From Polyangia bacterium (GTDB lineage: Bacteria; Myxococcota_A; Polyangia; HGW-17), in assembly GCA_041686345.1 (NCBI GenBank), contig JAWLEA010000005.1, positions 1-63,113 of the forward strand: 63,113 nucleotides of DNA, given 5' to 3'. The notes below the pieces were generated by a model. The model was not told the origin of the DNA. It was given only the letters and a program-made list of their open reading frames with translations, and ran no database searches. Position 1 is the stretch's first letter, and the number at the start of each line of letters is the position of its first letter. Both the position numbers and the translations under genes were made by a program. This document shows positions 1-63,113 of this stretch, one piece after another.

Positions 1-107
1 TTTGTCGTAACTTCTTGAAATAGTAGTGGCTATATCTGCGAAGTTACTTCGCGCATCTGAAACCAGTTTCTTCACCAGGCCAATAACCCCTATTCTGGGA
101 TGGGAAC
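1..107 (-). mobile_element. MITE-like 162-bp element, copy 1 (cut by window start)
   Basis: Ends ...TTCTGGGATGGGAAC followed by TAGTTA (108-113); body aligns with the copies at 9840 and 32245. Confidence 0.85.
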
Positions 108-283
108 TAGTTAAGATGCCTGGTTCTATGAGTATTCTGGTTGCTCCGGTTGTTTCGGGCCATTTCGTCCATTTTTCTATCAACTCTTATTTTGGCAAAA
201 AATATCATCACAACCAGCAAAAGCAATGTTGCCAAAGCGTAAGCCAAAAGAACAACAGTTGAATTTTTCATTTTTATTTTCAT
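107..283 (-). CDS. 58-aa small membrane protein, not in ORF track (possibly truncated)
   Basis: Own translation MKIKMKNSTVVLLAYALATLLLVVMIFFAKIRVDRKMDEMARNNRSNQNTHRTRHLN*; ATG overlaps the GntR stop (TAATG), AAGGAG RBS upstream, one hydrophobic helix; TAG stop lies at the element junction. Confidence 0.6.
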   Translation of the reverse strand: MKIKMKNSTVVLLAYALATLLLLVVMIFFAKIRVDRKMDEMARNNRSNQNTHRTRHLN

Positions 284-9839: not shown

Positions 9840-10001
9840 GTTCCCGGCCCAAAAAGGAAGGTCATCGACTGAACGCGGAATTTTACACCATCAACTTTGT
9901 CGTAACTGCTTGATATAATGGCAACTATGTCGGTGCAGTTATTCCGCGCATCTCAATCCAATTTCTTCACCAGTCAATAACACCACTTCTGGGATGGGAA
10001 C
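9840..10001 (-). mobile_element. MITE-like element, copy 2 (full, 162 bp)
   Basis: GTTCCCGGCCCA...TGGGATGGGAAC; flanks TAACCA / TAACTA. Confidence 0.9.
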
Positions 10002-10004
10002 TAA

Positions 10005-11942
10005 CTAGATATCAAGAGCTATTAACTGATTATTTTTTTTATGGATAAATTGTTGTTCTTTTCCTTCGAAATAATACCTCAATACGGCATCAGTGCCGGA
10101 AGCCCTGATTTCAAACCAGCAATTTTCAAATTCGATAAAAGTTCCGTCACCGGCCCAAAAACAATCTTTTACTTCGGGAAAAGAGCTGTCTCCTGTTTTT
10201 TCCCTGAGAATTCTGGTAGTTTCCTCGGATTTCAGAGATGAAAGGTTTTTGAAAAAAGCAACAACTTTTTCTTTCTTACGATTTCCCCGAAGTTTTGCCT
10301 TATTTCGTTTTTCCCCGGTAAGACTTTCATCATAAAGAACAATATCCTGTCTTTCATAGGCAATTAAATTGATTTTGTAGGATTTTATCAGATCAAGATA
10401 AAAACGGGCAAATGATTTTTCTTTTTCCAGCAAACGGGCGGCCAAAGCCAAAGTGGCCAAGCCAACCTGCATTCCGTCTTTTTCTTTGAGTCCGAGAGAA
10501 TGATTTTTCCGTTTCTCAGAAAATACTCCTTCAGCTGTACCCATGGCAGCTCCGCCACTTTCTTCACACATAATCAAAAAACGGGGATTATCTCCCAGGT
10601 TGGTTTTTTTCCCGGTTATATCCTTAAATACCAGTTCGGATTTTTGTTGACGCAACCCTTGTTGGACGTCTTTGATTAAATTGCCGAAATGTTTGAAACC
10701 AACTGGAACCAGGCAATAATTGAGTTTGGCCTTGTATTCCGCTGCTATCCTGGAGGCAATCTGAAAAATAGAGCGAGAAGTTGGATAAGTTTCAGCTGCA
10801 ATCCAGTCGTATTTCTCAAGTTTCCCGGTTTCGGCCAGTTCTCTTACCCTCATTGCAGTCAACATAAAATATATTTGGTTTGGTTTGAAATATACTGCAA
10901 TTCTTTTATTGTCCAGCATTTCCGTTTCCAGACCATTGGCTTTTGCTTTCTTTTCCAAAGCAATTGGAGCCACCGTAACAATATTAAATCTGTCTCCATC
11001 GGGATCCCAGATAAAAACAAGATTGGCCTTGTTTTTACGTAACAACTTTTGAGCCCCAATATTTTTATATACTTGCCATTTGCCGGGATCCACTCCGTGG
11101 TTGACTCCGTTTAAAATTCCAATATCGTAAAAGCTCTGATTTTCTTTTTCGTGGATAAAAGAAATCCCTTTTTTATCCAGGGGAAAAGAAAGATGTGAAA
11201 AAATTTTACGAGCTGTGGCTCCCATGGAACCACCTTCGGTGGAAATAGTTACTTTCAATTCTTTGTTCAGAGCTTCACGGATTTTATCAAAAGATTCGGG
11301 CATGATAATATGATTCAAAAAATCCACATAAGCATCCAGGGGTTTAAAATCTTTTTTTATGAGTGTTGAATCCGACGGATGGAGTTGGATCTCAAGGGAT
11401 TCTTCAAGGGCTTTTTTTACCAGCATTTTAACTTCCAATGCAATATCACCGGCAAGTGAAAGAAGCTGCATTCCTTTACTGTCCATAGGTTTCCACCCAC
11501 CTTTATAATTAGGGGAATGGGAAGCAGTGAAGTTTTCTCCGCCACCGAGTTCATGATAAAAAGTGCCAAAAGAAGACAGCCAGATTGGAGTTGTCTTGAT
11601 ACCATCTCCCCTCAAATGAACTGTTATCCCGGCAGCTGCATATATCCGGGAAAAAAGATCAATGAATTTGTCAGTATGAGGTCTTACCTCGCCTCCAATA
11701 TGCAATGATTCTATTTTGTTCTTTTTGCAAACATTAGCTCTGGCGATGGCAATAAGGGAAGCTGTAACTGCATTGAAAGGAACATCGACAGCAAAAAAAT
11801 CTTCAGGATCAAGTAAATCCCTGTAGCCGGCTGTTCCCAATTTGAAATCCTCAGCCCATTTTTTAAGTGAATATTTTTTACATATTTCCTTGTCAATTAT
11901 AATTGTTTCAGGTTTCTGAGCAAAAGGGGTAAACAATGTCAT
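10005..11942 (-). CDS. Phosphoglucomutase/phosphomannomutase family protein
   Basis: LGTAGYR, TASH phosphoserine motif, DPDGDR metal loop, EESGG, RASGT. Confidence 0.88.
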   Translation of the reverse strand: MTLFTPFAQKPETIIIDKEICKKYSLKKWAEDFKLGTAGYRDLLDPEDFFAVDVPFNAVTASLIAIARANVCKKNKIESLHIGGEVRPHTDKFIDLFSRIYAAAGITVHLRGDGIKTTPIWLSSFGTFYHELGGGENFTASHSPNYKGGWKPMDSKGMQLLSLAGDIALEVKMLVKKALEESLEIQLHPSDSTLIKKDFKPLDAYVDFLNHIIMPESFDKIREALNKELKVTISTEGGSMGATARKIFSHLSFPLDKKGISFIHEKENQSFYDIGILNGVNHGVDPGKWQVYKNIGAQKLLRKNKANLVFIWDPDGDRFNIVTVAPIALEKKAKANGLETEMLDNKRIAVYFKPNQIYFMLTAMRVRELAETGKLEKYDWIAAETYPTSRSIFQIASRIAAEYKAKLNYCLVPVGFKHFGNLIKDVQQGLRQQKSELVFKDITGKKTNLGDNPRFLIMCEESGGAAMGTAEGVFSEKRKNHSLGLKEKDGMQVGLATLALAARLLEKEKSFARFYLDLIKSYKINLIAYERQDIVLYDESLTGEKRNKAKLRGNRKKEKVVAFFKNLSSLKSEETTRILREKTGDSSFPEVKDCFWAGDGTFIEFENCWFEIRASGTDAVLRYYFEGKEQQFIHKKNNQLIALDI

Positions 11943-12260
11943 ATTTTCTCCTGTCCTCTCATGATTATATAAAGGATAATCTTCTGCTTCCCATTTCGCA
12001 ATTCAATACCAGCCTTCACCTGCAAAATGATTTGGAGATAAATATTGCGGGAAACAGACCCTGAAGTACTCCTTGAAAATATCTTCAGGCCAAGATATAA
12101 ATACCAATTTATTGAACAATTGTAAAAGGTAATTCAACAACCGGTTTATTGTGCTCCCCAGATAAATATCCTGCAAAACAGGATTGAAATATCAACTCAT
12201 AAATAGTTTTATTGAAAGGAGCTCTTGATTTTTTTAAAGCAAAAACTAAAGGTAGAAACC

Positions 12261-12620
12261 ATGATTAAAATGTATTTCAAAACCACAATAAAAATAATAT
12301 TTATCGGCTTATTTCTGGTTGGTCTCAGTTGCCAACAGAATAAACAGGAAAAAATTGAAGACAAAAAACAAAAGCTTTATCAATTAATCAAGACAAAAAA
12401 CAAAACTGAAAACAAAACTGTCAATCATAAAAATAAAAATTCAACAGAGGGACAACCTAATCCGCAACGTGGTTCTACAGGAATTGGCAATTATGATTTC
12501 GGAACTGTTCCAAACTCCAATATAAAATTCCGCCCCCCTGTCAATTCCGCCACTGATTTGAAAAAACAGAGAGAAACAAACAAAAAAAACCATTCTGGGA
12601 TGGACAAGAAGTCGGATTGA
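12261..12620 (+). CDS. Hypothetical lipoprotein; last codons and stop lie in element copy 3
   Basis: Hydrophobic signal with GLSC lipobox, Lys/Asn-rich body; start uncertain (12261 or 12270). Confidence 0.55.
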   Translation: MIKMYFKTTIKIIFIGLFLVGLSCQQNKQEKIEDKKQKLYQLIKTKNKTENKTVNHKNKNSTEGQPNPQRGSTGIGNYDFGTVPNSNIKFRPPVNSATDLKKQRETNKKNHSGMDKKSD

Positions 12621-12733
12621 GATGCGCGGAATAACTGCGCAGACATAGTTGACACTATTTCAAGAAGTTATGACAAAGCTGATTAATTCAATTTCCGTCG
12701 CCAGACAATGACATCCATGTTTGGGATGGGAAC
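12606..12733 (+). mobile_element. MITE-like element, copy 3 (one end missing)
   Basis: GATTGAGATGCGCGGAATAAC...TTTGGGATGGGAAC then TACTTA; between convergent genes. Confidence 0.85.
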
Positions 12734-14196
12734 TACTTAACTAGGCCGGTTTTGGAATTGAATTCTTCAATTGCCTTGTCCCACTTTGGAACAACTGAAA
12801 AAATCCTGTCCCAGAATTCACGCTCCCAAAGAGTTTCCAAATCTCTGACATCTTTTGCCTGTTGTTCAACCCAGGTAAAATATTTGAGATTATGCAATTT
12901 CTTTCTATCCCAATAAGTTAATTCCTCGAAATTATCAAAACCCTGCATTCTCAAGCAACCTTCACTGCATTTCAAAGCTTCTTCTCTGGTGTATTTGCCC
13001 TTGTCCTGACTGAACTCAACCAGTCTGGAACGATACATATCAGCAGAATCTGTAAATACAGTGTAAATAACATCATTACTGTCCATCTCGAAGAATTTAG
13101 CAGTTTTGACAGCTGCGAGCAGATTGGCGATACTTGAAATTCCAAGGAGATGCAATTGGTCTACCAATTCTTTTTTGACTCCCTGCTCCTGGAGAACTTT
13201 CTTGCCTGACTCTTCATTGAAAAGACGAAGAAGCCTCATGGTGTCCTCATCGTCAATGGCTGCAACGGCATCGGTATTTCTGGTGTTATGAATCCAGGGA
13301 ACATGCTTGTCGCCGATTCCTTCAATTCGATGTGCTCCAAAGCCGTTTCTCAAAAGTGTAGGACATTGCAATGCTTCTGAAGCTATTGTCATCATGTTGG
13401 GAAATTTTTTCTTGAGATAATCTCCGGCAGCTATTGTTCCAGCACTGCCTGTAGCACTAACATAAGCAGCAAGTCTTGATTTTTCATCTTTTACTTCTGG
13501 CCAGATTTCTTCAAAGGCATTGCCGGTAACTTCGTAGTGGAAAATTGCATTGCCAAATTCATCAAACTGATTGAAAATTACCGCACTGTCATCTGTATTG
13601 CGAATTTCCCAGCATTTATCATAAATTTCTTTTACATTGGATTCGGAACCTGGAGTAGCTATAACTTCAGACCCGATTTCCCGCAGCCAGTCAAAGCGTT
13701 CCTGACTCATTTCCTCGGGAAGAATTGCAACTGGTGTACAAGCCAGAAGCGCACAGTCAAAAGCTCCACCTCGGCAATAGTTTCCGGTGGAAGGCCAAAT
13801 CGCCCGATGTGTCGTAGGATCAAACTCTCCGGTAATCAATCTGGGAACCAAACAACCAAAGGCTGCACCAACTTTATGAGCACCGGTGGGAAACCATTTT
13901 CCAACCAAACCAACGATTTTAGCATCAACTCCACTCAATTCGGGGGGAATTTCAATGTAATTTACTCCACCAAAAAGTCCGGTTTTTATATCATTTTTCC
14001 AGGAAATTCTGAATAGATTGCGTGAATCCACATCCCAGAGACCTATTTCAGGCAATTGTTTTTTTATTTTTTCCGGAATTTTTTCGGGATTTTTTAATTG
14101 TTCAAAAGTGGGAATAAGAATATTTCTTTCCCTGCATCTTTTAACTGTATTTTCCAAAATAGCATGATTAAATTTTAATTCGACAGGATTGTACAT
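12733..14196 (-). CDS. Fold-type II PLP-dependent enzyme (cysteine synthase/Trp synthase beta superfamily)
   Basis: PTGAHKVG (PLP Lys), STGNY, ATGSAGT, HRIEGIG, GISS; start at MYNP with AGGAG RBS. Confidence 0.85.
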   Translation of the reverse strand: MYNPVELKFNHAILENTVKRCRERNILIPTFEQLKNPEKIPEKIKKQLPEIGLWDVDSRNLFRISWKNDIKTGLFGGVNYIEIPPELSGVDAKIVGLVGKWFPTGAHKVGAAFGCLVPRLITGEFDPTTHRAIWPSTGNYCRGGAFDCALLACTPVAILPEEMSQERFDWLREIGSEVIATPGSESNVKEIYDKCWEIRNTDDSAVIFNQFDEFGNAIFHYEVTGNAFEEIWPEVKDEKSRLAAYVSATGSAGTIAAGDYLKKKFPNMMTIASEALQCPTLLRNGFGAHRIEGIGDKHVPWIHNTRNTDAVAAIDDEDTMRLLRLFNEESGKKVLQEQGVKKELVDQLHLLGISSIANLLAAVKTAKFFEMDSNDVIYTVFTDSADMYRSRLVEFSQDKGKYTREEALKCSEGCLRMQGFDNFEELTYWDRKKLHNLKYFTWVEQQAKDVRDLETLWEREFWDRIFSVVPKWDKAIEEFNSKTGLVK

Positions 14197-14414
14197 ATTT
14201 ATTTCTCCTTGATAATTGTAGTTCTTACAAAGAACATCGTTTTTAACGACGAACAGCAAGATAGTTTATTTTTGGGAAAAAAGCGAATGTTGTCGGAAAA
14301 TAATTCCTATTTTTTTAATCCGGATTCCAAATTAAGTTAAGCTATTGATATGATGTGCAAATAAAAAGATGTGCTTTAAATCAAAATCAAAAAGTTATAT
14401 TTAAAAATTCTGAT

Positions 14415-17975: not shown

Positions 17976-18012
17976 GTTCCCATCCCAATAACCCCCATAC
18001 TGGGATGGGAAC
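17976..18012. mobile_element. Minimal 37-bp derivative of the element (both termini joined), copy 4
   Basis: GTTCCCATCCCA-ATAACCCCCATAC-TGGGATGGGAAC; flanks TAGTCA / CAGTTA. Confidence 0.85.
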
Positions 18013-18030
18013 CAGTTATCGAGCGATCCC

Positions 18031-32244: not shown

Positions 32245-32406
32245 GTTTCCATCCCAAAAAGGAAGGTCATCGCCTGAATGCGGAATTTCACCTCATCTGC
32301 TTTGTCGTAACTGCTTGAAATAGTGTCAACTATGTCGGTGAAGTTATTCCGCACATCTGAGGCAAACTTCTACCCCAGCCGAAAACACCACTTCTGGGAT
32401 AGGAAC
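32245..32406 (-). mobile_element. MITE-like element, copy 5 (full, 162 bp)
   Basis: Perfect TAGGTA direct repeat on both sides (32239-32244, 32407-32412). Confidence 0.92.
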
Positions 32407-32576: not shown

Positions 32577-35500
32577 TTGAATAAGATTGAAAATTTCAAA
32601 TTGTTAAAAAGAATTGGAAAAGGGGGAATGGCAGAAGTCTATCTTGCCAAGGCAGATTACAACGGTCTCAAAAAGATAGTTGCTCTCAAAAAAATACTTC
32701 AACCCCTTTCATCCAATGATCATTTCCGGGAAACATTCAGGCATGAAGCCGGCCTCTCAATGGAACTGAATCATCCCAATGCTGTTCAAGTTTTTGAATA
32801 CGGGCAAACTGCCGATGGAAAACATCTTTACATGATCATGGAATTCATCAATGGTGTCGATTTGATGAATCTGATGAAAACCATGAAAAAGCAAAATCAA
32901 ACAATTGAACCGGGAATAGCTGTCTTCATAATCAGTGAAGCACTCAAAGGACTTGATTATGCCCATCGACTTATAGGCAGTGATGGTCAACCCCTGGAAC
33001 TGGTACACAGAGATGTAAGTCCTCAAAACATCCTTCTTTCTTTTGAAGGTGCCGTCAAAGTCACCGACTTCGGAATTGCCAAAGCCCTCAACAAAAAAGA
33101 AGAAGAAGAAGGAGTTCTCAGGGGAAAAATTCATTATATGTCCCCAGAACAAGCTTATGCCAAACCTCTTGATAAAAGATCAGATATCTTTTCAACTGGT
33201 TTAATTCTGTATGAAATGTTGACGGGCACAAATCCATATAAACAATTCAAAGGTACTCAAGCTCTGGAAAAAGCTAAAAAGGCCGAAATAAAACCACCAT
33301 CCATGTTGATTGATGTTCCAATTCAACTGGAAAAAATCATTCAAAAAGCGCTTTCTCCTCAAAAAGAAAACCGTTATCAAAATGCAAGGGAGATGCAAAA
33401 CGACCTGTCCTTGTACCTGCATAAATTGCCGGTGCTCTATGACTCCAACAAATTAACATTCATTCTCGATCAGACCTTTTCAGATAAATCCAAAATCAAA
33501 CTTGCTGGACTTGACAGTCCCACCATAAATAAAAAATCTGACAGTAATGCTGATTTCGGTTTTACCAACGAAACACATACAGGAACTTTTTCCATCAAAG
33601 AAAAGAAAAATCTTGTTTCCATGGTTATCCAGGTTGGAGGTGTAAAAAAAGCACTGCAACGACATGATCGCGACAAGGTTGAAGGCGAACTGGAAAACTT
33701 CATGAATATGGTGGAATTTATTATGATCAAAGATAAGGAAAAGAGGTATCGTTCCCGTCGCCTTACTGACAATAAATTGTTGGTAGTTCGTGGTATTCCT
33801 TATACCGGAGAATATGATGAAACCGAACTTCTCATGGATGCCCACAAAATAAAAAGAGATTTTAAAGTTTATCAGGAAGAAGTTCCTGAATTCAACATTG
33901 GAATCGGGGTAGATCGCATCAAGGTCAGCATTGTTTTCAACAAATCTTCAATACATTGGGATATCCTGGATAATTCAGAAAGAAAACTCTCTCTCCTTGC
34001 CCGCAGTAACCCCAATGAAATCATGGTATCGGCTCAAATTCACTCTGCAGCCAGATACAATTGGAAATTTGAAAAAATAAAAAATGATTTTGGTCTTTAT
34101 AATTATAAGTTAATCAATCTCAAAAGTGATTACGAAATAAAAAAGACCAGAATGACCAACAATCTTGTGGGTCGTTCATTTGCACTTGGTCGAATGCAGC
34201 GTGAATTTCAAGAATCGGTCAAAAAATCTCGTTTTGTCATCCTGCCCATAATCGGTGATATGGGAGTAGGCAAAACTACTCTGATCCAAAATTTTATTCA
34301 GGGCATCAAGAATAAAAACAGGGTTTTCAGTACTGAAGCCAAGCCATTCAACAGTTTTTCCCCGTTTTCACTTATTATCTCTCTGCTGAAAGATATTTCA
34401 CGTACCCGCGGGGGTTCTGGAAAAGACTTTACCAAGATTATTTACAAGGAATTGAGAAACCTGTTGAGTGAAAAAACTCTGGATGAAATTGTCAAAACCC
34501 TGGAAATGCTCCTTGATTCAGAAAAAGAAATTTCACAGGGACACAACGTCGGAGCTCTGGTTGCCACAGCATTGCGCAGAATTCTGAAAGGGTTTTCAAA
34601 TCAAGGACCTGTAATCGCTATCTTTGAAGATCTGCAATGGGCCGATAAAAAGAGTCAATCAGTTCTCAATTCACTTTTTGAAAATGAAAAATTGAAAGGC
34701 AGGGTCTTCATCATCCTGTCAGTAAGAGATGCTGATGATTACTCCAACACCTTTAATGACAAAAATTCTGTCAAACTGCCCATTAAATTAACTTATTTTG
34801 ATCCTGAACTTACCCGCAAATTTGTGGAGAGGAGATTCGAAAATCCCCAAAAAGCAGCACCTATGATTGACAGAATAGTTAAAATGTCAGAGGGAAACCC
34901 CTTTTTCATAAATGAGCTTTTGTCTTTTGTCGTATCTAAAGGCTTTTGTGAGCCAACTGAGAGCAATTCCGAGAAACTTGTTCTCACCAGGAATATTTCA
35001 GCCAATTTCTCACTGGAAACTTCCCCCACCATCGATGGAATTATCTCCAGTAAACTTGATAATCTCTCTCCCGAAAACAGAAGAATCATTCGTCTTGCTT
35101 CAATTGCCGGCAGAACTTTCTACAAAAAACAATTGCAACAACTGGTTGAAGAGGATGTAGAACAATTTCTGGAAGAATTTGAAAAAAGAAATTTCATCAA
35201 ACAGATGAAAGAACCGGACAGATATACCTTTGTTCAAAAAATAATGAGAGACTTCGCCTATTCTGGGCTTGCCGAAGATGATAAACGCCATGGTCACCTG
35301 CTCATGGCTGAATATCTGGAACAAAATGAACAAAAAAATTATAATGCTCCCATAATAGCCATGCATTATGAAAAGGGTGGCAATCACGAAAAAGCAATAG
35401 AATATTATTTACAAGCAGCTCATCATTCCAAAAATCTGGCTTCCAACAATGAAGCTCTTAACCATTACCAGAAAATTCTGGAACTGGTGGGCAAAAACAA

Positions 35501-36797
35501 AGAAGTTAAATTCCATGCCCATAAAGATATGGTCAATATCTACCGCAACCTTGGTTTACGCAATAAACAACTTGTGGAAATCAAAAATATGGAGACCCTC
35601 GCTCTCGAAGAAAACAAAACCAAGTGGCTAAGTGAAGCCCAATGCAGAAAACTGGCTTATTTTCAGGATATTGGCGAACCTCGTAAAACCATAAATCTTT
35701 TTGACGAAGTAATCACTAACGCAACTAATGCCCAGGATGAAAAAACTCAGATTTATGCCTATTATATTCTGGCCAGAGCTTTGGTTGATCTCGGTGAAAT
35801 AGATAAATCATTTGAAGCCGTCGGCAAAGGGATGGAAATAATAAACAAAAATCCCAATATTAAATATCTCAAGGGCAATCTTCTTCATATCAAAGCCAAC
35901 ACCTACCACTACAGCGGTGAAGATGAAAAGGCCATTGCCGCTTATGAAAAAGCCCTTAAGATTTTCAGGGAAAACAACAAAAGAACTGAAGAAGCAACTA
36001 TTTTAATGAACTTGGGCTTTCTCTCTTTTGTCAGGGGTAATTACGAAAAAGCCCTGTCCCTGTACAAAAAAGCTTACCAGATTGACATAAGCAAAGGAGA
36101 CAGACTTTATACAGGGGTTAAACTATCCAATATTGCTCAAACTCAAATCGCCCTGGGTAATTATTCTCAAGCCCGAAAAGTATTGCAACAGGCCAAAAGA
36201 TTGTGTCTTGCCACTAAAGACAGTGGTGCCCTCAGCGATACCTACTTTACAATTGCCCTGCTCAAACTCCGTACCGGCAATCCAGCAGCTTCCATGCAGT
36301 TTATCACCGAAGGACTCCGCATTGCCAGAGAAGCAAACAGTAAAATTGATGAAGTAAGAGGCTTGCAACTATGGGCCCAATGCCAATTAGAAGATCTGGA
36401 GGGTAATTATTCAGAAGCCCTCTTAAAATCTGAACAACTTATCAAACTTGCCAAAAATTCCAAATTGCCCAACAGTTATATCCACGGACTTCGGTTGAAG
36501 GCTTTAACTCTGTTGAAAATGGGCGAAAACAAAGAAGCCCTCCCTTTTTCCACCAAGGCTGTATCTTTGACAGTTGTCAGCAATGTCGAAAACAAGGAAG
36601 TTATTTATCATACCCATGCCAGAATCATGCTTTCTCTTCAAAAGAAATATTGGGCTCAGAGATTTTTGAAAAAAGCTGTAGATATAGTTAAAGTCAAAAA
36701 CAATCTGCTTTCCTCAGAACAGGCAAAACAAATCTATCTTTCCGTTTATCCAGCCCGAAATATACTGGAAGATTTTGAAAACTATCAAAATAGTTAG
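32577..36797 (+). CDS. Ser/Thr kinase - AAA/STAND ATPase - TPR multidomain protein
   Basis: GKGGMAEV, HRDVSPQN, DFG, YMSPEQ; GDMGVGKT, FEDLQWAD, GNPFF; C-terminal TPRs; TTG start with GGAG. Confidence 0.9.
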   Translation: MNKIENFKLLKRIGKGGMAEVYLAKADYNGLKKIVALKKILQPLSSNDHFRETFRHEAGLSMELNHPNAVQVFEYGQTADGKHLYMIMEFINGVDLMNLMKTMKKQNQTIEPGIAVFIISEALKGLDYAHRLIGSDGQPLELVHRDVSPQNILLSFEGAVKVTDFGIAKALNKKEEEEGVLRGKIHYMSPEQAYAKPLDKRSDIFSTGLILYEMLTGTNPYKQFKGTQALEKAKKAEIKPPSMLIDVPIQLEKIIQKALSPQKENRYQNAREMQNDLSLYLHKLPVLYDSNKLTFILDQTFSDKSKIKLAGLDSPTINKKSDSNADFGFTNETHTGTFSIKEKKNLVSMVIQVGGVKKALQRHDRDKVEGELENFMNMVEFIMIKDKEKRYRSRRLTDNKLLVVRGIPYTGEYDETELLMDAHKIKRDFKVYQEEVPEFNIGIGVDRIKVSIVFNKSSIHWDILDNSERKLSLLARSNPNEIMVSAQIHSAARYNWKFEKIKNDFGLYNYKLINLKSDYEIKKTRMTNNLVGRSFALGRMQREFQESVKKSRFVILPIIGDMGVGKTTLIQNFIQGIKNKNRVFSTEAKPFNSFSPFSLIISLLKDISRTRGGSGKDFTKIIYKELRNLLSEKTLDEIVKTLEMLLDSEKEISQGHNVGALVATALRRILKGFSNQGPVIAIFEDLQWADKKSQSVLNSLFENEKLKGRVFIILSVRDADDYSNTFNDKNSVKLPIKLTYFDPELTRKFVERRFENPQKAAPMIDRIVKMSEGNPFFINELLSFVVSKGFCEPTESNSEKLVLTRNISANFSLETSPTIDGIISSKLDNLSPENRRIIRLASIAGRTFYKKQLQQLVEEDVEQFLEEFEKRNFIKQMKEPDRYTFVQKIMRDFAYSGLAEDDKRHGHLLMAEYLEQNEQKNYNAPIIAMHYEKGGNHEKAIEYYLQAAHHSKNLASNNEALNHYQKILELVGKNKEVKFHAHKDMVNIYRNLGLRNKQLVEIKNMETLALEENKTKWLSEAQCRKLAYFQDIGEPRKTINLFDEVITNATNAQDEKTQIYAYYILARALVDLGEIDKSFEAVGKGMEIINKNPNIKYLKGNLLHIKANTYHYSGEDEKAIAAYEKALKIFRENNKRTEEATILMNLGFLSFVRGNYEKALSLYKKAYQIDISKGDRLYTGVKLSNIAQTQIALGNYSQARKVLQQAKRLCLATKDSGALSDTYFTIALLKLRTGNPAASMQFITEGLRIAREANSKIDEVRGLQLWAQCQLEDLEGNYSEALLKSEQLIKLAKNSKLPNSYIHGLRLKALTLLKMGENKEALPFSTKAVSLTVVSNVENKEVIYHTHARIMLSLQKKYWAQRFLKKAVDIVKVKNNLLSSEQAKQIYLSVYPARNILEDFENYQNS

Positions 36798-36957
36798 TTC
36801 CCATCCCAGAATGGGGGTTATTAACTGAATGAGAAGTTTATCTCAGATGCGCGGAATAACTTCGCAGACATAGTTGGCACTATTTCAAGAAGTTATGACA
36901 AAGCTGATTAATTCAAATTCCGTCGCTAGGCGATCACCTTCTTTTTGGGACGGGAGT
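36797..36957 (+). mobile_element. MITE-like element, copy 6 (full length)
   Basis: TAGTTA then GTTCCCATCCCA...; its first G completes the TAG stop of the kinase gene. Confidence 0.9.
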
Positions 36958-37309: not shown

Positions 37310-37461
37310 CAGAGTGGAGATTTTTGACTGAATAAGAAATTTGTCTCAAATGCACCAAATAGCTTCGCAGACATAGTTGACACTATTTCAAAAAGTTATG
37401 ATAAACAAATGAGATATAAATGACCTGTTCAGGCGATGAATTTCCTGTTTGGGACAGGAAC
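37310..37461 (+). mobile_element. MITE-like element, copy 7 (degenerate, one terminus lost)
   Basis: CTTCGCAGACATAGTTGACACTATTTCAA core; ends GGGACAGGAAC then TAAATA. Confidence 0.8.
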
Positions 37462-51338: not shown

Positions 51339-52571
51339 ATGAGAGTTCTTGGAATAAACGGCTTAGGCAGAATCGGCAAACTAACCCTCTGGCGCCATAT
51401 TTCCTTAGGCTATTACGATAAAATAGTAATCAACACCGGCAGAAAAGTTGGAAAAAATATTCAAGATATAGCCAACTACCTGGAATCAGATTCAACCTAT
51501 GGTCAGTTCAGCCGCTATCTTTACGGCTTTAAAGGAGATAAAAAACGACCTGTGGTCAAAATCGATCCAGAACAGGAAAATTCTCTCAATATTGAAGGAA
51601 CCAAGGTTGTACTGCTTACCCGCCACCGCAACCCCAAAGATATCCAGTGGCATCAGCATAATGTAAAAATCGTAGTTGATACAACAGGTGTTTTTCGTGA
51701 TCCCACCAAAGATCCTGGAGCTCCCGGAGGGTCCATCCGCGGTCATCTCGAAGGAGGAGCCCGCAAAGTAATCAATTCTTCTGCTTTCAAAATGAAAACA
51801 AATAAAACAACTCCGGAGGATTCTGTAACTTTGATTCACGGAATCAACCACCATGCTTTTGATTCCCATGAACACAATATAGTCAGTGCCGCCAGTTGCA
51901 CTACCACTGCTCTGGCCCACATGATCAAACCTCTGCTTGAAGCCAGAGAAACCAGCAAATTGCTCACAGCTTCCATGTCCACCATCCATTCAACTACAAA
52001 TACCCAGAGTGTTCTCGATAAGGTACCAGCTGCCGAGGCTTCCGATTTTCGCAAAAATCGGATGGTTCTCGACAATATCATTCTCACTTCAACCAACGCT
52101 GCCAAAGCTCTGGGCATTGTAGTTCCCCAGATCCAGAAAATTGGCTTCATGGCTGATTCGGTAAGAATTCCCACATCTACTGTTTCACTTGTAACTCTCA
52201 ATATAACCGTTCAAACTAAAATCCACGAAGATGGAGAAAGTTCGGTTACCAGAGAAATCGTCAACAATATCATGAAAAAAGCTGCTGAAGGTCCCCAGAA
52301 AGATCTCCTCGTTTACAGTGAAGTTCAAAAAGTATCAACTGATTACAAAGGTGTTGATGCGGCTGTCATTATTGAAGCCAATGATACTCATACCCGCACA
52401 GCCTTTCTGGAACTGGATCCAACGGAAGTGGGCCTGGAAATTGATTCTGGAAAAAAACTCAAAATACCCGTTACCCACGTTAAAATATTTGGCTGGTATG
52501 ATAATGAATTTGGTTCCTACACTCACCGCTTGGCCGATCTCACCACCTTTATCGAAGATCAACTTCACTGA
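51339..52571 (+). CDS. gap: Type I glyceraldehyde-3-phosphate dehydrogenase with insertions
   Basis: GINGLGRIG, DSTYG, ASCTT, STIH, RIPT, WYDNEFG; AGGAGG RBS. Confidence 0.9.
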   Translation: MRVLGINGLGRIGKLTLWRHISLGYYDKIVINTGRKVGKNIQDIANYLESDSTYGQFSRYLYGFKGDKKRPVVKIDPEQENSLNIEGTKVVLLTRHRNPKDIQWHQHNVKIVVDTTGVFRDPTKDPGAPGGSIRGHLEGGARKVINSSAFKMKTNKTTPEDSVTLIHGINHHAFDSHEHNIVSAASCTTTALAHMIKPLLEARETSKLLTASMSTIHSTTNTQSVLDKVPAAEASDFRKNRMVLDNIILTSTNAAKALGIVVPQIQKIGFMADSVRIPTSTVSLVTLNITVQTKIHEDGESSVTREIVNNIMKKAAEGPQKDLLVYSEVQKVSTDYKGVDAAVIIEANDTHTRTAFLELDPTEVGLEIDSGKKLKIPVTHVKIFGWYDNEFGSYTHRLADLTTFIEDQLH

Positions 52572-52651
52572 CACCTGCCTAATCCTGTCTTATTGCAAAG
52601 AGTTTAATTTCAGCTATTCAAAGAAGCATTAATCTATTATATTGATGAAGT

Positions 52652-53908
52652 ATGCTTTATTGTCCTGTCTGCCACAGATTATTTGAAGAAGATGGTCAAA
52701 TCTGCCCTTTTGATGAAACCGAACTGATTGTTCCTCCCGATCCCCGGCTGGGAACCAAAGTGGGGAATTATTTTCTCAACAAAATCATAGGAAAAGGTGG
52801 CATGGGCAAAGTATACAAAGGTGAACATGTTTTTATCGGAAAAGCTTTTGCCATAAAAATTCTCCACCCTCAATTCAAAGGTCACAAAAAAATTATCGAA
52901 CGTTTTCTGTTTGAAGCCAGAGCTGCTGCCAGGATAAACCATCCCAACATAGTAGATATCACAGACTTCGGTTATACAACCGATCAAACCCCGTTTTTTG
53001 TCATGGAATACATGGAAGGACGGGAATTAATTGAGCTGCTCATGGATGAGGCACCTTTGCCAGTCTACAGAGCTGTCAATATCATGTTGCAAACTTGTGA
53101 TGCTCTGGCATCCTGCCATGATGAAGGAATTGTCCATCAAGATCTAAAACCTGAAAATATTTTTCTGGTCAAAAGAAAAGGTCGCCGAAAACTGGTCAAA
53201 CTCCTGGATAACAAACCAGACAAATTCAAACTGGAAAAAGAAGAAAATTTTGATCTGGTTAAAATCCTCGATTTTGGTGTAGCTCATTTGGCTCAACTCC
53301 AAACAGGAGATACCATAGCCGGAACTCCTGAATACATGGCTCCCGAACAGGCCAGAGGGGTCAAAGGAGATCCACGCAGTGATATCTACTCCCTGGGAAT
53401 TATCTTTTTTGAAATGCTCACTGGAACAATCCCCTACTCCGGAGACAGTCCCAGCGAAATTTTCAAACAAACTCTCAACTCCCCTCCCCCCGAAATAAAC
53501 AAACTTTTTCCAAAACTTAAATTCAATAAACAAGTAGTGCACGTAATCAAAAAATCGCTGGCCAAAAAGCCGGAAGATCGCTTTCAAAATATAGATGAAT
53601 TAATGGAAAATCTTCGCAATTGTTTTGGCAGAACTTTCTATTCCAGGGATATTCCCAAAGTATTGGCACAAAACAAAAAGAAAAGGTCCCAGATAGATGC
53701 CGATCTGGCTCTTGATCTCAGTCAATTATTCAATTCCAAAAAGAACAACAAAAGAATTTCTTCAATAAAAACAAAAAAAGCCAGTTCCGATTCACCTAAA
53801 ACTGAACGAAACACAATGAGTACAAAATCACTGCGCAAAGAGAAAAAGAAAATCGGAGGTCAATTGGGCAAAGATCTGAATTCTCTCTTTAAAAAAAATA
53901 AAGATTGA
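52652..53908 (+). CDS. Ser/Thr protein kinase with N-terminal zinc ribbon
   Basis: CPVC..CPFD, GKGGMG, AIK, HQDLKPEN, DFG, GTPEYMAPE. Confidence 0.92.
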   Translation: MLYCPVCHRLFEEDGQICPFDETELIVPPDPRLGTKVGNYFLNKIIGKGGMGKVYKGEHVFIGKAFAIKILHPQFKGHKKIIERFLFEARAAARINHPNIVDITDFGYTTDQTPFFVMEYMEGRELIELLMDEAPLPVYRAVNIMLQTCDALASCHDEGIVHQDLKPENIFLVKRKGRRKLVKLLDNKPDKFKLEKEENFDLVKILDFGVAHLAQLQTGDTIAGTPEYMAPEQARGVKGDPRSDIYSLGIIFFEMLTGTIPYSGDSPSEIFKQTLNSPPPEINKLFPKLKFNKQVVHVIKKSLAKKPEDRFQNIDELMENLRNCFGRTFYSRDIPKVLAQNKKKRSQIDADLALDLSQLFNSKKNNKRISSIKTKKASSDSPKTERNTMSTKSLRKEKKKIGGQLGKDLNSLFKKNKD

Positions 53909-54414: not shown

Positions 54415-54599
54415 AACTACTATGACAGGGGAACAAATAAAATAAATCTTTGCAAAATTTCTTTTTTTGATAGAGTTCTGATAAAGAAAAATTTTGCTGG
54501 TTGCAATTAGATGGGAACCGGTGGGTTGCTATCTAATTGCAAATAATTGCCTGTATCCGCATACTATTATTCCGGTCCCCTGAAATCTGGAGAATATTC

Positions 54600-55019
54600 A
54601 TGTACAAACTAATTTTAGTATTTGTTTTGCAACTGACAATTTTTACAATCGGCTGCAAGAAACCACCTTGTGAAGTTGCTTTGAAGAAAGCTGAAACTTG
54701 TCTCAAAAAAGAAAACAAAAAACCAAATACAAATCACGCTCCAATTTTTTTGCAATTATGCAAAAAAAACAAGAGCAAGTTTGATAAATGCAATAAAATC
54801 AAGGAATGTACAGCATTCAGGAGTTGCATTTCCGAAGCAGCCACCAACCCTGCAGCTGTCAAAGAATATAATAAATTGTATAATCTGAATTCCGAAGAAG
54901 ATAACTCGGACAAGAAAACAGAAAAAAATTCCGAAGAAGATAACTCGGACAAGAAAACAGAAAAAAATTCCGAAGAAGATAACTCGGGCAAGAAAACAGA
55001 AAAAAACAACTCCGAATAA
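54600..55019 (+). CDS. Hypothetical Cys-containing lipoprotein with repeat tail
   Basis: GGAG RBS, IGC lipobox, 6 further Cys, (NSEEDNSDKKTEK)x3. Confidence 0.7.
   Translation: MYKLILVFVLQLTIFTIGCKKPPCEVALKKAETCLKKENKKPNTNHAPIFLQLCKKNKSKFDKCNKIKECTAFRSCISEAATNPAAVKEYNKLYNLNSEEDNSDKKTEKNSEEDNSDKKTEKNSEEDNSGKKTEKNNSE
54888..55004 (+). repeat. 39-bp coding tandem repeat, 3 copies
   Basis: AATTCCGAAGAAGATAACTCGG(A/G)CAAGAAAACAGAAAAA three times with a single mismatch. Confidence 0.95.
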
Positions 55020-56924: not shown

Positions 56925-59423
56925 ATGAAAGCCAAATGTCCCCATTGTGGAAAAGAAATAGATGCAAAATCTTCTTTTTGTGGAAAATGTGGCAAAAAAT
57001 TAAAACAAACAATTATCGGAACTCCTACACCTATTTCCGATCCGAATTTATTCAAAAAAAATTCATCTGCGAAATTTTCCCGAATAAAAAGTAAGAAACT
57101 GGAAGATCTTTCAGCTAGTGATACTCTGTTCAATTCTCCCGACATTCTTCTGGGAAAAATGGTGGGAGAATACAAAGTCACTAATATTATCGGCAAGGGC
57201 GGAATGGGATGGGTATTTTCCGGTATTCATCCTGTCATCGAAAAAAAAGTTGCCATTAAAGTTCTAAAATCAAAATATTCCAAAGACGAAAAAATTGTCT
57301 CATCCTTCATGAATGAGGCTAAAGCAGTTAACTCCATCGGCAGCAAAAAAATCATCGATATCTTTGCCTTCGGCCAGCTTGAATCCGGTAATTTCTATTT
57401 CATCATGGAATTACTTGAAGGTTCATCCCTCGCTGAATTTCTCAAGAAAAAAGGAAAACTGAAAGCTTATGACGCTTATAAAATAATTACCCCCATTCTT
57501 GATGCTTTACAAGCTGCCCACGATAAAAAAATTATTCACCGGGATCTTAAACCTGAAAACATCTATATTTGTAAAGACGAAGACAAGGAATATACTGTCA
57601 AGCTTCTTGATTTCGGTATTGCCAAATTTAAAGAAGACAGTTTTTCATCCATGCATGAAACTCAGGCAGGCGTTATCAAAGGCTCGCCCTTATATATGTC
57701 TCCGGAACAATGCAAGGGTGAAGAAATTACAGTTCAATCTGATATTTATTCTTTTGGAATTATCCTCTATAAAATTTTTACTGGAAAAGTTCCTTTCAGA
57801 GGCAAAAATGCTTTAAGCGTAATTACAGCCCATCTCAAGGACGAACCGGAACCACCAAGCAAACATGCTGATATTCCAAAAGAACTGGATAACATTATTC
57901 TCAACTGTCTCAAAAAAGATCCCCAGGAAAGAATAGCCTCCATCCTTGATCTTAAAGACATGTTGATTCCCGTGTTGCAAAATATGGCACTGGCTCCAGT
58001 CAAAAAAAAGAACAGATCGGGCATTCTGGTTTTTTTACTTGCTTGCCTTGTAGTAGCCGGCTCCATTTTTTTTGTTTTAAAACCCTGGAAATATTGGAAT
58101 AAAAATAAAAATAAAAATAGTGCAGTTTTTGAAACAGTTGAATTATCAATTATTTCAGCCCATCCTACTTTGCTCAACCAAGAGTTTGAAGCCGGTTTCA
58201 ACAAATGGATGCTTAAAAATTACAAAAAACAGGTCAAAATAAAATGGTTTTCCTTCAGAGACGAGCTGGCTTCACTCCAGACCAATATTAAATCCTCAAT
58301 TAAGAACAACAAATTAACCAAGTATGATGTTATCTTTGGAGGAGGCGAACAAATTCATCACCGTCTTGCTTCACCCAAGTGCCTTACTATCGACGGCAAA
58401 AATTATCGATGCAGCGAAATAATCAATCTGGAACAGGAAATTAAAGATAAAATTCCTTCCTCCCTTCATGGAGTCAAACTCTATGATGAAAAAGGATACT
58501 GGTATGGTACTGCTCTTTCCGGATTTGGTTTTTTCTGCCACAAGGGCCGTCTCAAACAAGCGGGTCTTGAACTGCCTGAAACTTGGAAAGAACTGGCAAA
58601 ACCTCAATTCTTTCAAAAGTTGATCAGTGCAGATCCATCGAAAAGCAGTTCCACCTATATGATCTATGAAATCATCATGCAATCAATGGGTTGGGAACGG
58701 GGCCTCAAAACGATAATATCTCTGGGGGCCAACATCCATGGAGATTTTTTGAAAAGCTCCAAAATAGTTCTTCACAAACTTCTCGACAATAAAAAAGCGG
58801 TTTGCGGACTTTCCATCGATTTTCTTTTCCATATGCAAAATTCTCAACTCGACGATAATATTGCCAAGCAAATGAAGTTTATCCTTCCTGAAAAAACAGC
58901 TGTTTTCACTTCAGATCCAATTTCAATTGTTAAAAATGCCCGCCATCTTTTTTTGGCTGAAAAATTTATAAAATATGTCCTCACCGAGGGTCAATTTCTT
59001 TTTATCAAACCGGTGGGTCATCCAAAAGGACCTGAACAGGAAATTCTCCCCAGATTGCCAATTGTACCAGATCTCTACAAAGAATCAGAACCCGTTAATT
59101 TTTACGTAAATCCCTTTACTCAAAAATCAAAACTGCAATTTGATTCCAAACAATCACTGAAAAGAAAAAAACTGTTCAGATTGCTTTTGAAAGCCGCTCT
59201 GATAGAAAGTCACAAACCCCAAGTGAATAGTTGGGACTACATGATCAAAAACAAAAAATTAAAAATTTGGCAAAAAGATAAAAACATTGTTATCTCCAAA
59301 AAGACATTCAACAAAAAATTAAAAGGTGCTGAAAACATGAATCGGCTTGCCTGGAACGAACTTCAATTCAAGTGGATTGAGATGTTCCATAAATATTACA
59401 AAAATCTTAGAGGAACAAAATAA
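56925..59423 (+). CDS. Zinc ribbon - Ser/Thr kinase - TM - periplasmic solute-binding domain fusion
   Basis: CPHC..CGKC; HRDLKPEN, DFG, YMSPEQ; single TM; DVIFGGG, PETWKEL, ADPSKSSS, AEKFIKYVL. Confidence 0.88.
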   Translation: MKAKCPHCGKEIDAKSSFCGKCGKKLKQTIIGTPTPISDPNLFKKNSSAKFSRIKSKKLEDLSASDTLFNSPDILLGKMVGEYKVTNIIGKGGMGWVFSGIHPVIEKKVAIKVLKSKYSKDEKIVSSFMNEAKAVNSIGSKKIIDIFAFGQLESGNFYFIMELLEGSSLAEFLKKKGKLKAYDAYKIITPILDALQAAHDKKIIHRDLKPENIYICKDEDKEYTVKLLDFGIAKFKEDSFSSMHETQAGVIKGSPLYMSPEQCKGEEITVQSDIYSFGIILYKIFTGKVPFRGKNALSVITAHLKDEPEPPSKHADIPKELDNIILNCLKKDPQERIASILDLKDMLIPVLQNMALAPVKKKNRSGILVFLLACLVVAGSIFFVLKPWKYWNKNKNKNSAVFETVELSIISAHPTLLNQEFEAGFNKWMLKNYKKQVKIKWFSFRDELASLQTNIKSSIKNNKLTKYDVIFGGGEQIHHRLASPKCLTIDGKNYRCSEIINLEQEIKDKIPSSLHGVKLYDEKGYWYGTALSGFGFFCHKGRLKQAGLELPETWKELAKPQFFQKLISADPSKSSSTYMIYEIIMQSMGWERGLKTIISLGANIHGDFLKSSKIVLHKLLDNKKAVCGLSIDFLFHMQNSQLDDNIAKQMKFILPEKTAVFTSDPISIVKNARHLFLAEKFIKYVLTEGQFLFIKPVGHPKGPEQEILPRLPIVPDLYKESEPVNFYVNPFTQKSKLQFDSKQSLKRKKLFRLLLKAALIESHKPQVNSWDYMIKNKKLKIWQKDKNIVISKKTFNKKLKGAENMNRLAWNELQFKWIEMFHKYYKNLRGTK

Positions 59424-60688
59424 TGTCAAAAAAGTACAAACTGGCACTGGATTCAGGTTCACCGGAAAATCCAACTATTTTTGGCAAATATTTACTCATG
59501 GGCCTGATCGCCAGAGGAGGAATGGCAGAAGTATATAGAGCTAAAAGGATAAAAGATGGAAAAATAGTTGCTTTGAAATGCATGCGCACCAAGTTGGTCA
59601 AGGAACCAAAATACATAGATATGTTTTTGTATGAAGGGAGAACAGCAAACCGCCTCAAGCACGAACACATCGTCAAAACCTACGAGGGAGGACGCTATAA
59701 CAATAATTATTTTTTCACTATGGAATATATCCAGGGCAAAGATTTAAACCATATCCTCCGTAAACTTAAAATACAGGGCCAGAGATTACCTACTCCAGCA
59801 GCCTTGTTCATCACTGTAAAAGCTTTGAGAGCCCTTGACTATGCTCATTCCCTCACTGATAAAAATGGAAAAAAGCTTAATATTATCAATAGAGATATCA
59901 GTCCTTCCAATATCCGCATTTCCTATGAAGGTGAGGTCAAAATTATTGACTTTGGAATTGCCAAAACCAGTGACCGGTATACTGCAGAAATTGGAACTCT
60001 GAAGGGTAAATTAAGCTATATGTCTCCGGAACAGATCAGGGGACTTCCCATCGATACCCAAACTGATATTTATTCAATGGGAATAATACTCTATGAGATG
60101 CTTACCATGGAAAAATTATTCAAGGCTGAAAGTGAAACAGAATTGATGAACCTCGTCAGAACAGCAGATATTAATCCTCCTTCGAGCATCAACAATCGCA
60201 TTTCCAAAAAACTGGACCAAATAATACTGAAAGCGCTCAAAAAATCAAAAAGTGAACGTTATCAAACAGCTGGCAAACTGGCAGACGCCCTGGAAGAAAT
60301 TCTTCTTCCTTACAAATTCAAGCAGAAAGAACTCGCCAACAAAATTAAAAATATCTTCTACGAAGATTATCAGAGAGAAAAGGAGATTATGCGTCTAGCC
60401 AAAGATATGGATTTCAATCTTGCCGGAATAGATTCAAATGAAGCCAAATCTTTTGATCAGATTTCAGCAGATAATTTCAATAATGAACAAAAACTTGAAC
60501 TGGAATTTGATATGGATTTTGAGGATGAAGATCTTGAACCGGTTCACACCGAAGATTTATTGGAAAATCCTCTGGTAGTTGATAATTCAAATATGAAAAA
60601 CCAGGATCTGAACAAATATATCTATCTGATGCTGGCAATGACCATAATTGCAATTATTGCAATCATCATTATTCTCATCCTTAACTAG
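59423..60688 (+). CDS. Ser/Thr protein kinase with C-terminal membrane anchor
   Basis: ARGGMAEV, NRDISPSN, DFG, KGKLSYMSPEQ; hydrophobic C-terminus; TAATG overlap with the upstream gene. Confidence 0.92.
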   Translation: MSKKYKLALDSGSPENPTIFGKYLLMGLIARGGMAEVYRAKRIKDGKIVALKCMRTKLVKEPKYIDMFLYEGRTANRLKHEHIVKTYEGGRYNNNYFFTMEYIQGKDLNHILRKLKIQGQRLPTPAALFITVKALRALDYAHSLTDKNGKKLNIINRDISPSNIRISYEGEVKIIDFGIAKTSDRYTAEIGTLKGKLSYMSPEQIRGLPIDTQTDIYSMGIILYEMLTMEKLFKAESETELMNLVRTADINPPSSINNRISKKLDQIILKALKKSKSERYQTAGKLADALEEILLPYKFKQKELANKIKNIFYEDYQREKEIMRLAKDMDFNLAGIDSNEAKSFDQISADNFNNEQKLELEFDMDFEDEDLEPVHTEDLLENPLVVDNSNMKNQDLNKYIYLMLAMTIIAIIAIIIILILN

Positions 60689-60849
60689 TTCCCATCCCAG
60701 AAGTGGTGTTTTTGGCTGGTGAAGAAATTGGATTGAGATGCACGGAATAACTTCGCAGACATAGTTGTCACTATTTCAAGAAGTTATGACAAAACTGATA
60801 AAACCAAATTCCGTCGCCAGACGATGACCTTCTTTTTTGAAACAGGAAC
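60688..60849 (+). mobile_element. MITE-like element, copy 8 (full, 162 bp)
   Basis: Flanks TAACTA / TAAATA; first G completes the TAG stop of the kinase gene. Confidence 0.9.
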
Positions 60850-60863
60850 TAAATAAAACTATT

Positions 60864-61754: not shown

Positions 61755-61846
61755 AATTTAACTCAATGTTTAATGGCTTTGAAATCCTCTGGTCAAATCC
61801 TGATATTTTCACTTATAAACTATATGAACACTCCATGGTTTAATCT

Positions 61847-62902: not shown

Positions 62903-62977
62903 TCTTTCAACTCATTTTATCATGGAATAATTTTGCAAATAGTTAAAAACCATATCACCAAATTACCATCTTAGTTA

Positions 62978-63064
62978 GTTCCCATCCCAAAAATGGATGT
63001 CATCGTCTGGCGACGGAATTTTATCTCATCTGCTTTGTCATAACTTCTTGATATAGTGGCAACT
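62978..63064 (-). mobile_element. MITE-like element, copy 9 (half copy)
   Basis: TAGTTA then GTTCCCATCCCAAAAATGGATGTCATCG...; breaks off in the central hairpin. Confidence 0.85.
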
Positions 63065-63068
63065 TAGA

Positions 63069-63113
63069 GTTCTCGTTTCAGAATGCAAGGTCATCACCTG
63101 AAGCACGGAAATT
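63069..63113 (-). mobile_element. MITE-like element, copy 10 (diverged, cut by window end)
   Basis: GTTCTCGTTTCAGAATGCAAGGTCATCACCTGAAGCACGGAAATT aligns with the start of copies 2 and 5. Confidence 0.7.

Follow-up and report, generated by a model that had tools for sequence, protein, structure and literature searches.

The repeat, its parent and its copies in the window

The stretch of DNA analysed here, hereafter the window, consists of 63,113 nucleotides (nt) of contig JAWLEA010000005.1 from a Polyangia bacterium (assembly GCA_041686345.1). Near its right end a gene is closed by a TAG codon whose G is already the first base of a 162-nt repeat flanked by a duplicated TANNTA hexamer. [quoted passage not shown] The earlier note had read four gene stops as the last TA of the target plus the first G of the element, a fifth as the first half of the target and a sixth as lying inside a copy, and all six are in place, the last of them in a copy with a degenerate 5' end. 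As argued below, the accumulation of gene ends at the borders of this MITE is probably in the main a by-product of its target sequence and of purifying selection.

The element was followed through the whole genome (G000, a draft of 3.64 Mb in 265 contigs with 88.9% completeness), in whose contigs its loci were located with an iterated nhmmer profile, and through a sister species of the same genus (G001, 92% complete, about 86% nucleotide identity in synteny), for which the counts refer to a 1.45-Mb subset. Genes were called with a purpose-written program and no standard caller; open reading frames (ORFs) of at least 40 amino acids (aa) were scored by codon usage, for which ORFs of 400 aa or longer served as training set, and a non-overlapping selection was made greedily. 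In G000 this gave 2780 genes at 88% coding density, 2656 of them with a called stop, of which 518 were TAG. Gene stops are described by their offset from the element, -2 being the target's last TA plus the element's first G (TA+G) and -6 the first triplet of the target.

The MITE is a 162-nt unit with ends GTTCCCATCCCAG and a 6-bp TANNTA duplication. G000 contains 574 non-overlapping loci, 287 of them full length and 54 reaching contig ends, which amounts to one locus per 6.3 kb and 2.1% of the bases; the G001 subset contains 169. In the aligned ends the first base is an invariant G at both ends. The two sides of a copy match in the variable NN of their duplication, as in TAGTTA/TAGTTA and TAAGTA/TAAGTA, and the whole hexamer is identical in 108 of 236 full copies. 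Given a true 6-bp duplication and a G at both ends, the proposal that TANNTA overlaps TAA and TAG codons and that the first G of the element regenerates TAG holds. With respect to coding capacity, reading by eye of the consensus of the hidden Markov model (HMM) indicated that the frames entering from -6 and -2 are already closed by the junction stop triplet and that the frame from -4 stays open for about 24 codons; the MITE thus appears to be short and non-coding.

The terminal inverted repeat GTTCCCATCCCA is found at both ends of the MITE and at both ends of a longer insertion sequence (IS) at G000:C30:4912-6596, which is 1685 bp in length and has MITE-like ends and the exact duplication TAGATA/TAGATA. 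Its transposase ORF of 456 aa matches the NCBIfam model NF033593 (G000:C30:5114-6367, 403.9 bits with respect to a cut-off of 325, over positions 14-442 of the 444 in the model), the single hit of this model in the assembled contigs of G000. Since this hit coincides at C30 with the same ends and an exact duplication, the repeat is a MITE of an ISNCY-family IS: it shares its terminal repeats with an autonomous element, has the same type of duplication, occurs in many copies and has empty sites. The NF033593 profile found no match in G001, whose completeness means that absence is not thereby shown. NF033593-type ISNCY elements are putative members of the ISDol1 group of ISfinder, which has lengths of about 1.6-1.9 kb and 6-7-bp duplications. 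The parent fits this range (1685 bp, 6 bp).

Other identities were discarded. When window positions 60400-63113 were scanned with Rfam at E <= 1, nothing came up but two unrelated hits below threshold, with no match for the flagged copy, so that an ERIC or IRU identity had no match there. A REP of the GTAG type was rejected because the element is 162 nt long, with IS-type terminal repeats and a DDE-family parent, and is not a palindrome of 20-40 bp tied to a RAYT. The search for a parent IS by the spacing of terminal repeats returned many chance pairs, and one candidate parent, at C9:18536-19736, proved to consist of a histidine-kinase gene with a solo terminal repeat on one side and a MITE on the other.

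The family also includes compound and reduced forms. Among the full copies, 45 of 236 are tandem or nested and adjoin another copy; in the examples seen, neighbours share a single hexamer (...GGGAAC TAGTTA GTTCCC...), and the duplicated target beside an element makes a good target in its own right. Within the central loop of ordinary copies there is a diverged subfamily of about 162 nt whose ends are GTTCTCGT...ACGAGAAC (G000:C239:670-832, C213:18782-18944, C9:25489-25651, C33:18583-18745, C185:1989-2151 and others), always at the same internal position and with constant flanks (CAGTTA ... TACAAG). It looks like a MITE-in-MITE composite that has itself been multiplied. In addition, mini-derivatives of about 27-85 nt, with little beyond the two terminal repeats and with TANNTA-type hexamer flanks, were found at G000:C23:3150-3179, near C17 position 2634, near C43 position 17918 and from C52:22041 onward; internal deletion or abortive repair may have produced them.

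In the window, the ends of the flagged copy can also be read as GTTCCCATCCCAG...CTGGGATGGGAAC. The 58-aa ORF closed at the left edge of the window overlaps by 1 base the stop of an upstream gene of 127 aa and has a hydrophobic stretch; it is a plausible candidate gene, which the caller used here did not accept.

Table 1. Loci of the MITE family in the window, with their target duplications and the ORFs that end at them
Feature	Position	Strand	Remarks
Flagged full-length MITE copy, 162 nt	60688..60849	+	nhmmer 169.5 bits; ends GTTCCCATCCCAG ... GAAACAGGAAC
Left target duplication of flagged copy, TAACTA	60682..60687	+	its final TA and G60688 together make the stop of gene 59423..60688
Right target duplication of flagged copy, TAAATA	60850..60855	+	one base unlike the left copy
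TAG stop, TA (target) plus G (element)	60686..60688	+	closes 421-aa ORF 59423..60688
Full-length MITE copy	36797..36957	+	TA+G at 36795-36797(+) closes 1406-aa ORF 32577..36797
Full-length MITE copy	9840..10001	-	target TAGTTA 10002-10007
Stop TAG, first half of target TAGTTA	10005-10007	-	closes 645-aa ORF 10005..11942
MITE copy, degenerate 5' end	12593..12733	+	3' end gives TA+G 12733-12735(-), closing 508-aa ORF 12733..14259(-)
131-aa ORF, stop 12618-12620	12225..12620	+	stop inside MITE copy 12593..12733
MITE copy clipped by window start	1..107	-	TA+G 107-109(-) closes 58-aa ORF 107..283
Full-length MITE copy, intergenic	32245..32406	-	exact duplication TACCTA; neither junction has a stop
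Diverged MITE copy, degenerate 5' end	37310..37461	+	without junction stop
MITE copy, sequence diverging before window end	62978..63113	-	nearest approaching stop 78 nt off
34-nt remnant, single terminal repeat	17985..18018	-	

Gene ends at the element borders

From the profile hits in G000, 828 element ends were predicted, and the 743 with GTT at the expected place were kept. An approaching gene stops within -400 to +175 of 304 of these ends. Stops are concentrated at two offsets, -2 (80 ends) and -6 (37 ends), which together make 117 of the 743 ends; each of the other offsets from -30 to -7, as well as -5 and -3, accounts for 0-7 ends, and -4 and -1 for none. Each of the 117 ends belongs to a gene of its own. 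These junction genes make up 4.4% of the 2656 genes with a called stop, and a length of at least 100 aa is reached by 114 of them. The same two offsets account for 29 and 11, respectively, of the 228 ends in the G001 subset. Junction stops occur at the same rate at the ends of partial copies (41/263) and of full copies (76/480), and an enrichment of full copies at stops through decay by deletion was therefore rejected. As a consequence of the junctions, 80 of the 518 TAG stops of G000 are made at element borders, so that stop-codon usage is visibly shifted, and in annotation pipelines about 4% of the genes would run 1-3 bases into a repeat.

The 3' end of 41 of the 117 junction genes is present in the G001 subset. 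The orthologue stops at the same codon in 34 cases, one codon off in 4 and three codons off in 1, and 2 are probably misaligned; a terminal repeat is present at 14 of these 41 stops in G001 and none is found at 27. Because most stops are at the same codon and most sites are unoccupied, the insertions are harmless, as the earlier note had proposed. If one codon of difference is allowed, 38 of the 41 orthologues agree, and by the comparison of C-termini that the earlier note recommended, the insertions leave the proteins intact.

The genes of the window illustrate this. The site of the flagged copy is empty in G001, where the sequence is CTAAAATAAAAC (...ATC CTA AAA TAA AAC) with the stop TAA at the same codon; the protein ends in ILK-TAA there and in ILN-TAG here, with equal length. 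The orthologue of the gene ending at 10005(-) terminates in LIALDI followed by TAG in both species, and no full element is found beside it in G001. The gene ending at 12733(-) and its orthologue have the same length, with the C-terminal sequence KTGLVK here against KTGLSD in G001, and the orthologue of the 131-aa ORF 12225..12620 ends at a TAG directly followed by the TTCCC of a terminal-repeat remnant.

Three further observations concern individual sites. At the position that corresponds to window 10002-10007, G001 (locus L127, about position 5490) has TAG followed by TTCCCGTTTC; compared with the empty site reconstructed for G000 it lacks about 5 nt, which may represent a footprint or an indel. 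The 1406-aa gene carries a copy on its stop in both species and in the same orientation (window 36789-36797; G001 locus L045, about 4340-4360), with the duplication TAGTTA here and TAACTA in G001 and a last residue of S versus N, which could be the result of two substitutions or of two independent hits on the same stop. Finally, a copy at G001:C210:8495-8661 lies between the orthologues of genes 51339..52571 and 52652..53908, a place where G000 has none (window about 52648-52653). The empty site of the flagged copy in G001 and this converse case near window 52650 are both signs of mobility.

It must be noted that the same junction rule can also clip a C-terminus at a tyrosine (Tyr) codon. When the pre-insertion codon was rebuilt from the other side of the element at 53 full-copy -2 junctions, it was TAG in 24, TAA in 18, TAC in 6 and TAT in 5. 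Reading through the 11 Tyr codons gave 2-134 lost codons in 10 cases, and in the 11th no stop was found. Placement of insertions in G001 by both flanks was possible for only 39 of 236, nested copies having matched paralogous MITEs; among the non-tandem ones, the stop class comprised 7 empty, 2 occupied and 2 unclear sites and the other class 9, 3 and 2, numbers too small to compare shared with private insertions class by class.

Target preference, orientation and competing explanations

Stop overlap was evaluated in relation to the availability of targets. The 191 non-tandem full-length insertions fall into three groups: 54 are on a pre-existing stop, 8 cut a gene short at a Tyr codon and the other 129 have neither effect. 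Among unoccupied TANNTA sites at which an insertion would break no gene (tolerated sites), 223 of 1928 (11.6%) overlap a stop at -2 or -6, and the share climbs to 18-19% where NN is AC or GT. For the 154 insertions that remain after omission of 29 and of the 8 clipping ones, the crude odds ratio of stop overlap with respect to the unoccupied tolerated sites is 3.8 (p = 2e-11). The overlaps thus exceed plain TANNTA availability, contrary to the outcome that would have refuted the earlier note; the orientation bias, treated below, was not borne out.

Insertions away from stops reveal the preference of the element itself. In the 129 insertions on no stop, the base before the target is a pyrimidine (Y) in 97 and the base after it a purine (R) in 96, and NN = AC/GT, AA/TT or GA/TC is likewise favoured. 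If the site is followed by R, the triplet TA+R is in every case a stop, and through the favoured NN a TAA or TAG comes to lie at -6. Most of the stop excess comes from this extended target, Y-TANNTA-R; a residue of 1.5-2-fold is real but unexplained. In a local control, in which favoured-type sites 7-30 nt past stops served as reference, the odds ratio was 1.42 (p = 0.2). The G001 subset, which is only partly independent since insertions are shared, gave a crude odds ratio of 3.6 and, after stratification, 20 observed against 12.2 expected overlaps (z = 2.9).

We consider, with a probability of about 0.78, that the pile-up at stop codons is mainly a by-product of target sequence and purifying selection, with no orientation preference. 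The DDE transposase of the ISNCY-family IS would mobilise the non-autonomous MITE and would cut a staggered 6-bp site, preferably Y-TANNTA-R with NN = AC/GT, AA/TT or GA/TC, which repair would duplicate. Both element ends start with G, so that the junction TANNTA+G has TAG at -2, and the favoured targets have TAA or TAG at -6. Such a motif is barred in frame inside genes and is common at gene ends, and on this account a large share of the tolerated sites overlaps stop codons. The upstream copy of the duplication would then keep the old stop (-6) or convert TAA or TAG to TAG (-2), the protein remaining unchanged, and selection would purge the insertions inside genes.

Several points weigh against this explanation. 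When insertions were stratified by NN class and flanks, 51 overlaps were observed where 34.3 were expected (1.5-fold, z = 3.9), and a logistic model with three flank positions retained an odds ratio of 2.05 (bootstrap confidence interval 1.26-3.42, likelihood-ratio p = 0.001). Selection against insertions on the promoter side was rejected as the source of this residue: the share of intergenic sites that are occupied amounts to 5.4% in convergent regions, 5.9% in tandem ones and 6.8% in divergent ones, and is thus no lower in the last. Moreover, stop-side copies score slightly higher against the family profile than the others (median 176 against 171 bits, p = 0.0016). The data have limits of their own, given that the gene calls come from a simple home-made caller and the assembly is a draft of 265 contigs in which 54 element loci reach contig ends. 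The occupancy tests omit 29 of 183 insertions in which neither copy of the duplication is still TANNTA, together with the tandem or nested copies (45/236) and the truncating insertions. Lastly, the cut geometry is deduced from the duplication.

A rival idea is that copies at gene ends are kept since a hairpin in the 3' untranslated region (3'-UTR) helps the host, be it by stabilising transcripts or as a processing site or terminator. As RNA, the flagged copy is predicted to form one long hairpin (-45.7 kcal/mol, z = -3.5 with respect to shuffles), and the excess of about 2-fold after sequence control (1.6-fold in G001) and the slightly better conservation of stop-side copies both agree with such a role, as do comparable effects reported for ERIC and Correia elements in the available part of a review (PMC10969869). 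No U-run, however, follows the hairpin as read from the sequence, and the occupancy of 3'-side intergenic sites is not above that of divergent regions.

Orientation speaks to the same idea. The earlier note had found the same end of the element facing the gene in 4 of 5 junctions, which is correct for the window (the model 5' end) and does not extend to the genome, where 60 model-5' and 57 model-3' ends face the gene; the figures for the G001 subset are 19 and 21. The bias in the window is a small-sample accident. Orientation calls are reliable: the best strand is ahead of its complement by 15.5 bits or more, with a median of 58. Full copies at junctions show no preference as to which strand is transcribed with the gene (34 vs 31), and between same-strand genes 89 elements lie with transcription and 94 against it. 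Since the two strands differ as RNA, one orientation should prevail if a 3'-UTR hairpin were selected for, and neither does; no sign of such selection was found in the orientation data or in the 3'-side occupancy data. In the folds of full copies the mean minimum free energy is -66.3 kcal/mol for the model strand against -49.3 kcal/mol for its complement, a difference of about 17 kcal/mol that points to many G-U pairs on one strand.

With regard to transcription, the right junction of the flagged copy lies within a metatranscriptome contig that is identical to window 60731-60881, which would suit a transcribed hairpin, yet the RNA contigs show neither strand nor ends and may stem from DNA. The sequencing runs are known as contigs only, in which strand, 3' ends and expression level cannot be read, and RNA libraries may contain DNA; the sampled words were present at 85% in one DNA run, perhaps that of the source sample, and at 16% in one metatranscriptome. 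Among the pieces listed, no RNA contig bridges the left, gene-side junction. Taken as a general cause of the pile-up, a beneficial 3'-UTR hairpin is unlikely.

Relatives of the parent element raise a broader question. A scan of one genome per species gave 72 loci with transposase relatives of 41-60% identity, in Myxococcota, Binatia, Acidobacteriota, Gemmatimonadota and others. The 36 relatives with both ends located, from many phyla, measure 1647-1804 bp and have GTTCC-type ends after TA, with duplications of 6-7 bp (TAGCTA, TAGTTA, TATTTA or AAGCCTA, for example); ISRle10, from plasmid pRL7 of Rhizobium johnstonii, is 1665 bp long with the 7-bp duplication TAGTCTA and a TA+G junction. Flanks of 150 nt or more were available for 92 IS ends, including a few doubtful end calls, and as a raw count 16 of these ends lie directly at an ORF of 80 codons or longer with its stop at -2 or -6. 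There are 18 such ORFs beside the ends of relatives, and 6 of the 10 checked carry Pfam domains (Lgt, a Big_2 protein, DAHP synthase, an Xre-type antitoxin, a hybrid histidine kinase and LEA_2), several of these being complete to the C-terminus. The occurrence of the TA+G junction in relatives of many phyla means that the rule is probably valid well beyond this organism.

From these relatives it could be argued that landing on stops is an evolved safe-site strategy of the IS family, in which the TA-ended target and the terminal G are maintained for harmless insertion at gene ends and allow a very high copy number. The TA+G junction and the TAG/CTA-type duplications of 6-7 bp common to the 36 full-length relatives and ISRle10 are consistent with it, and so are the 16 abutting ORFs, the Pfam domains in 6 of 10 of those checked and the dense copies here, one locus per 6.3 kb. 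Recognition by the transposase, on the other hand, constrains terminal bases and target anyway, so that conservation alone is no proof of adaptation; some of the 92 ends are doubtful, and long spurious ORFs are common in GC-rich genomes. We regard such a strategy as improbable. A wider form of the proposal, that the whole NF033593 or ISDol1-like branch of ISNCY is a stop-codon-homing lineage with gene ends as safe harbour, by means of a TA-ended, TAG/CTA-rich target and an invariant terminal G, is doubtful; if true, it would explain how a MITE with a copy every 6 kb or so touches 4.4% of the genes harmlessly. On this reading the residual 2-fold excess and the better-conserved stop-side copies could also point to the retention of some copies as structures of 3' ends.

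That the junction genes are an artefact, i.e., truncated or spurious ORFs that ran into the element and were closed by its TAG, is very improbable: the 11 of 53 rebuilt -2 junctions with TAC or TAT before insertion and the 58-aa ORF 107-283, only a candidate gene, would fit it, but 114 of the 117 genes have at least 100 aa, a -6 stop is never created by the element, and the G001 orthologues, with 34 of 41 stops at the same codon and 27 of 41 sites unoccupied, largely refute it.

The window contains other repeats besides the MITE. Two large ORFs, at 18031-20133 and 37650-40220, are made up of repeat families D2-D5, whose cysteine-rich units are about 30 residues long. The ORFs at about 33000, 53400, 57700 and 59900 are connected by direct repeats D9 and D12, and we take these ORFs, from the wording of the repeats, to be putative kinase-like paralogues. 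Three near-identical tandem units of 39 nt are located at 54888-55006, within ORF 54537..55019.

Comparison with known systems

The closest known elements are those of the ISNCY/NF033593 type such as ISRle10. The parent resembles them in its score above the family cut-off, its one transposase ORF, its GTTCC-type ends and its TA-ended duplication. They differ in that the present finding concerns a non-coding derivative of 162 nt with 574 loci, as opposed to one assembled parent. In a literature search of main texts, neither the TANNTA target nor an overlap with stops was found to be described for this IS group.

The ERIC elements of enterobacteria and the Correia elements of Neisseria generate a TA duplication. 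Like the present element, both are hairpin MITEs that lie beside genes; they are co-transcribed with these genes, according to the parts of two articles that were available (PMC10969869, PMC2229807). The same parts describe how ERIC at the 3' end of Yersinia genes alters transcript levels and how Correia transcripts are cut by RNase III. However, their sequence is unrelated and their parent families are others, and the orientation neutrality observed here argues against an RNA effect. The comparison with ERIC made in the earlier note is an analogy in consequence alone and not in family. In the available part of the 2024 review of prokaryotic MITEs (PMC10969869), neither 'stop codon' nor 'ISNCY' occurs, and in that of Delihas 2008 (PMC2229807) stop codons are treated only within the reading frames of the repeats themselves.

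Overlap with the 3' ends of genes has been described for QMITE1 and QMITE2 of Coxiella, whose copies, in the accessible portion of that report, share 1-10 bp or more with the 3' ends of functional genes, one copy supplying a C-terminal extension (PMC5896051). The likeness to the present element lies in this overlap. The QMITEs belong to other families, and in the same portion their overlaps are given case by case, with no stop-regenerating target rule.

In its consequence, the nearest case is that of the GTAG-tagged REP elements, in which the end of the repeat supplies the stop of the gene (Di Nocera et al. 2013, PMC3733652), as it does here. REPs are palindromes of 20-40 bp tied to tyrosine (RAYT-type) transposases, and they have neither IS terminal inverted repeats nor a 6-bp duplication, whereas in the present MITE the stop consists of the target's TA plus the element's G or is the target itself. 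Given that stop-supplying repeat ends have already been described for REPs, no new kind of biology is involved. What the present family adds is a simple, checkable rule for the coexistence of a very dense MITE with a compact genome: the target contains stop triplets and the first base of the element rebuilds the stop.

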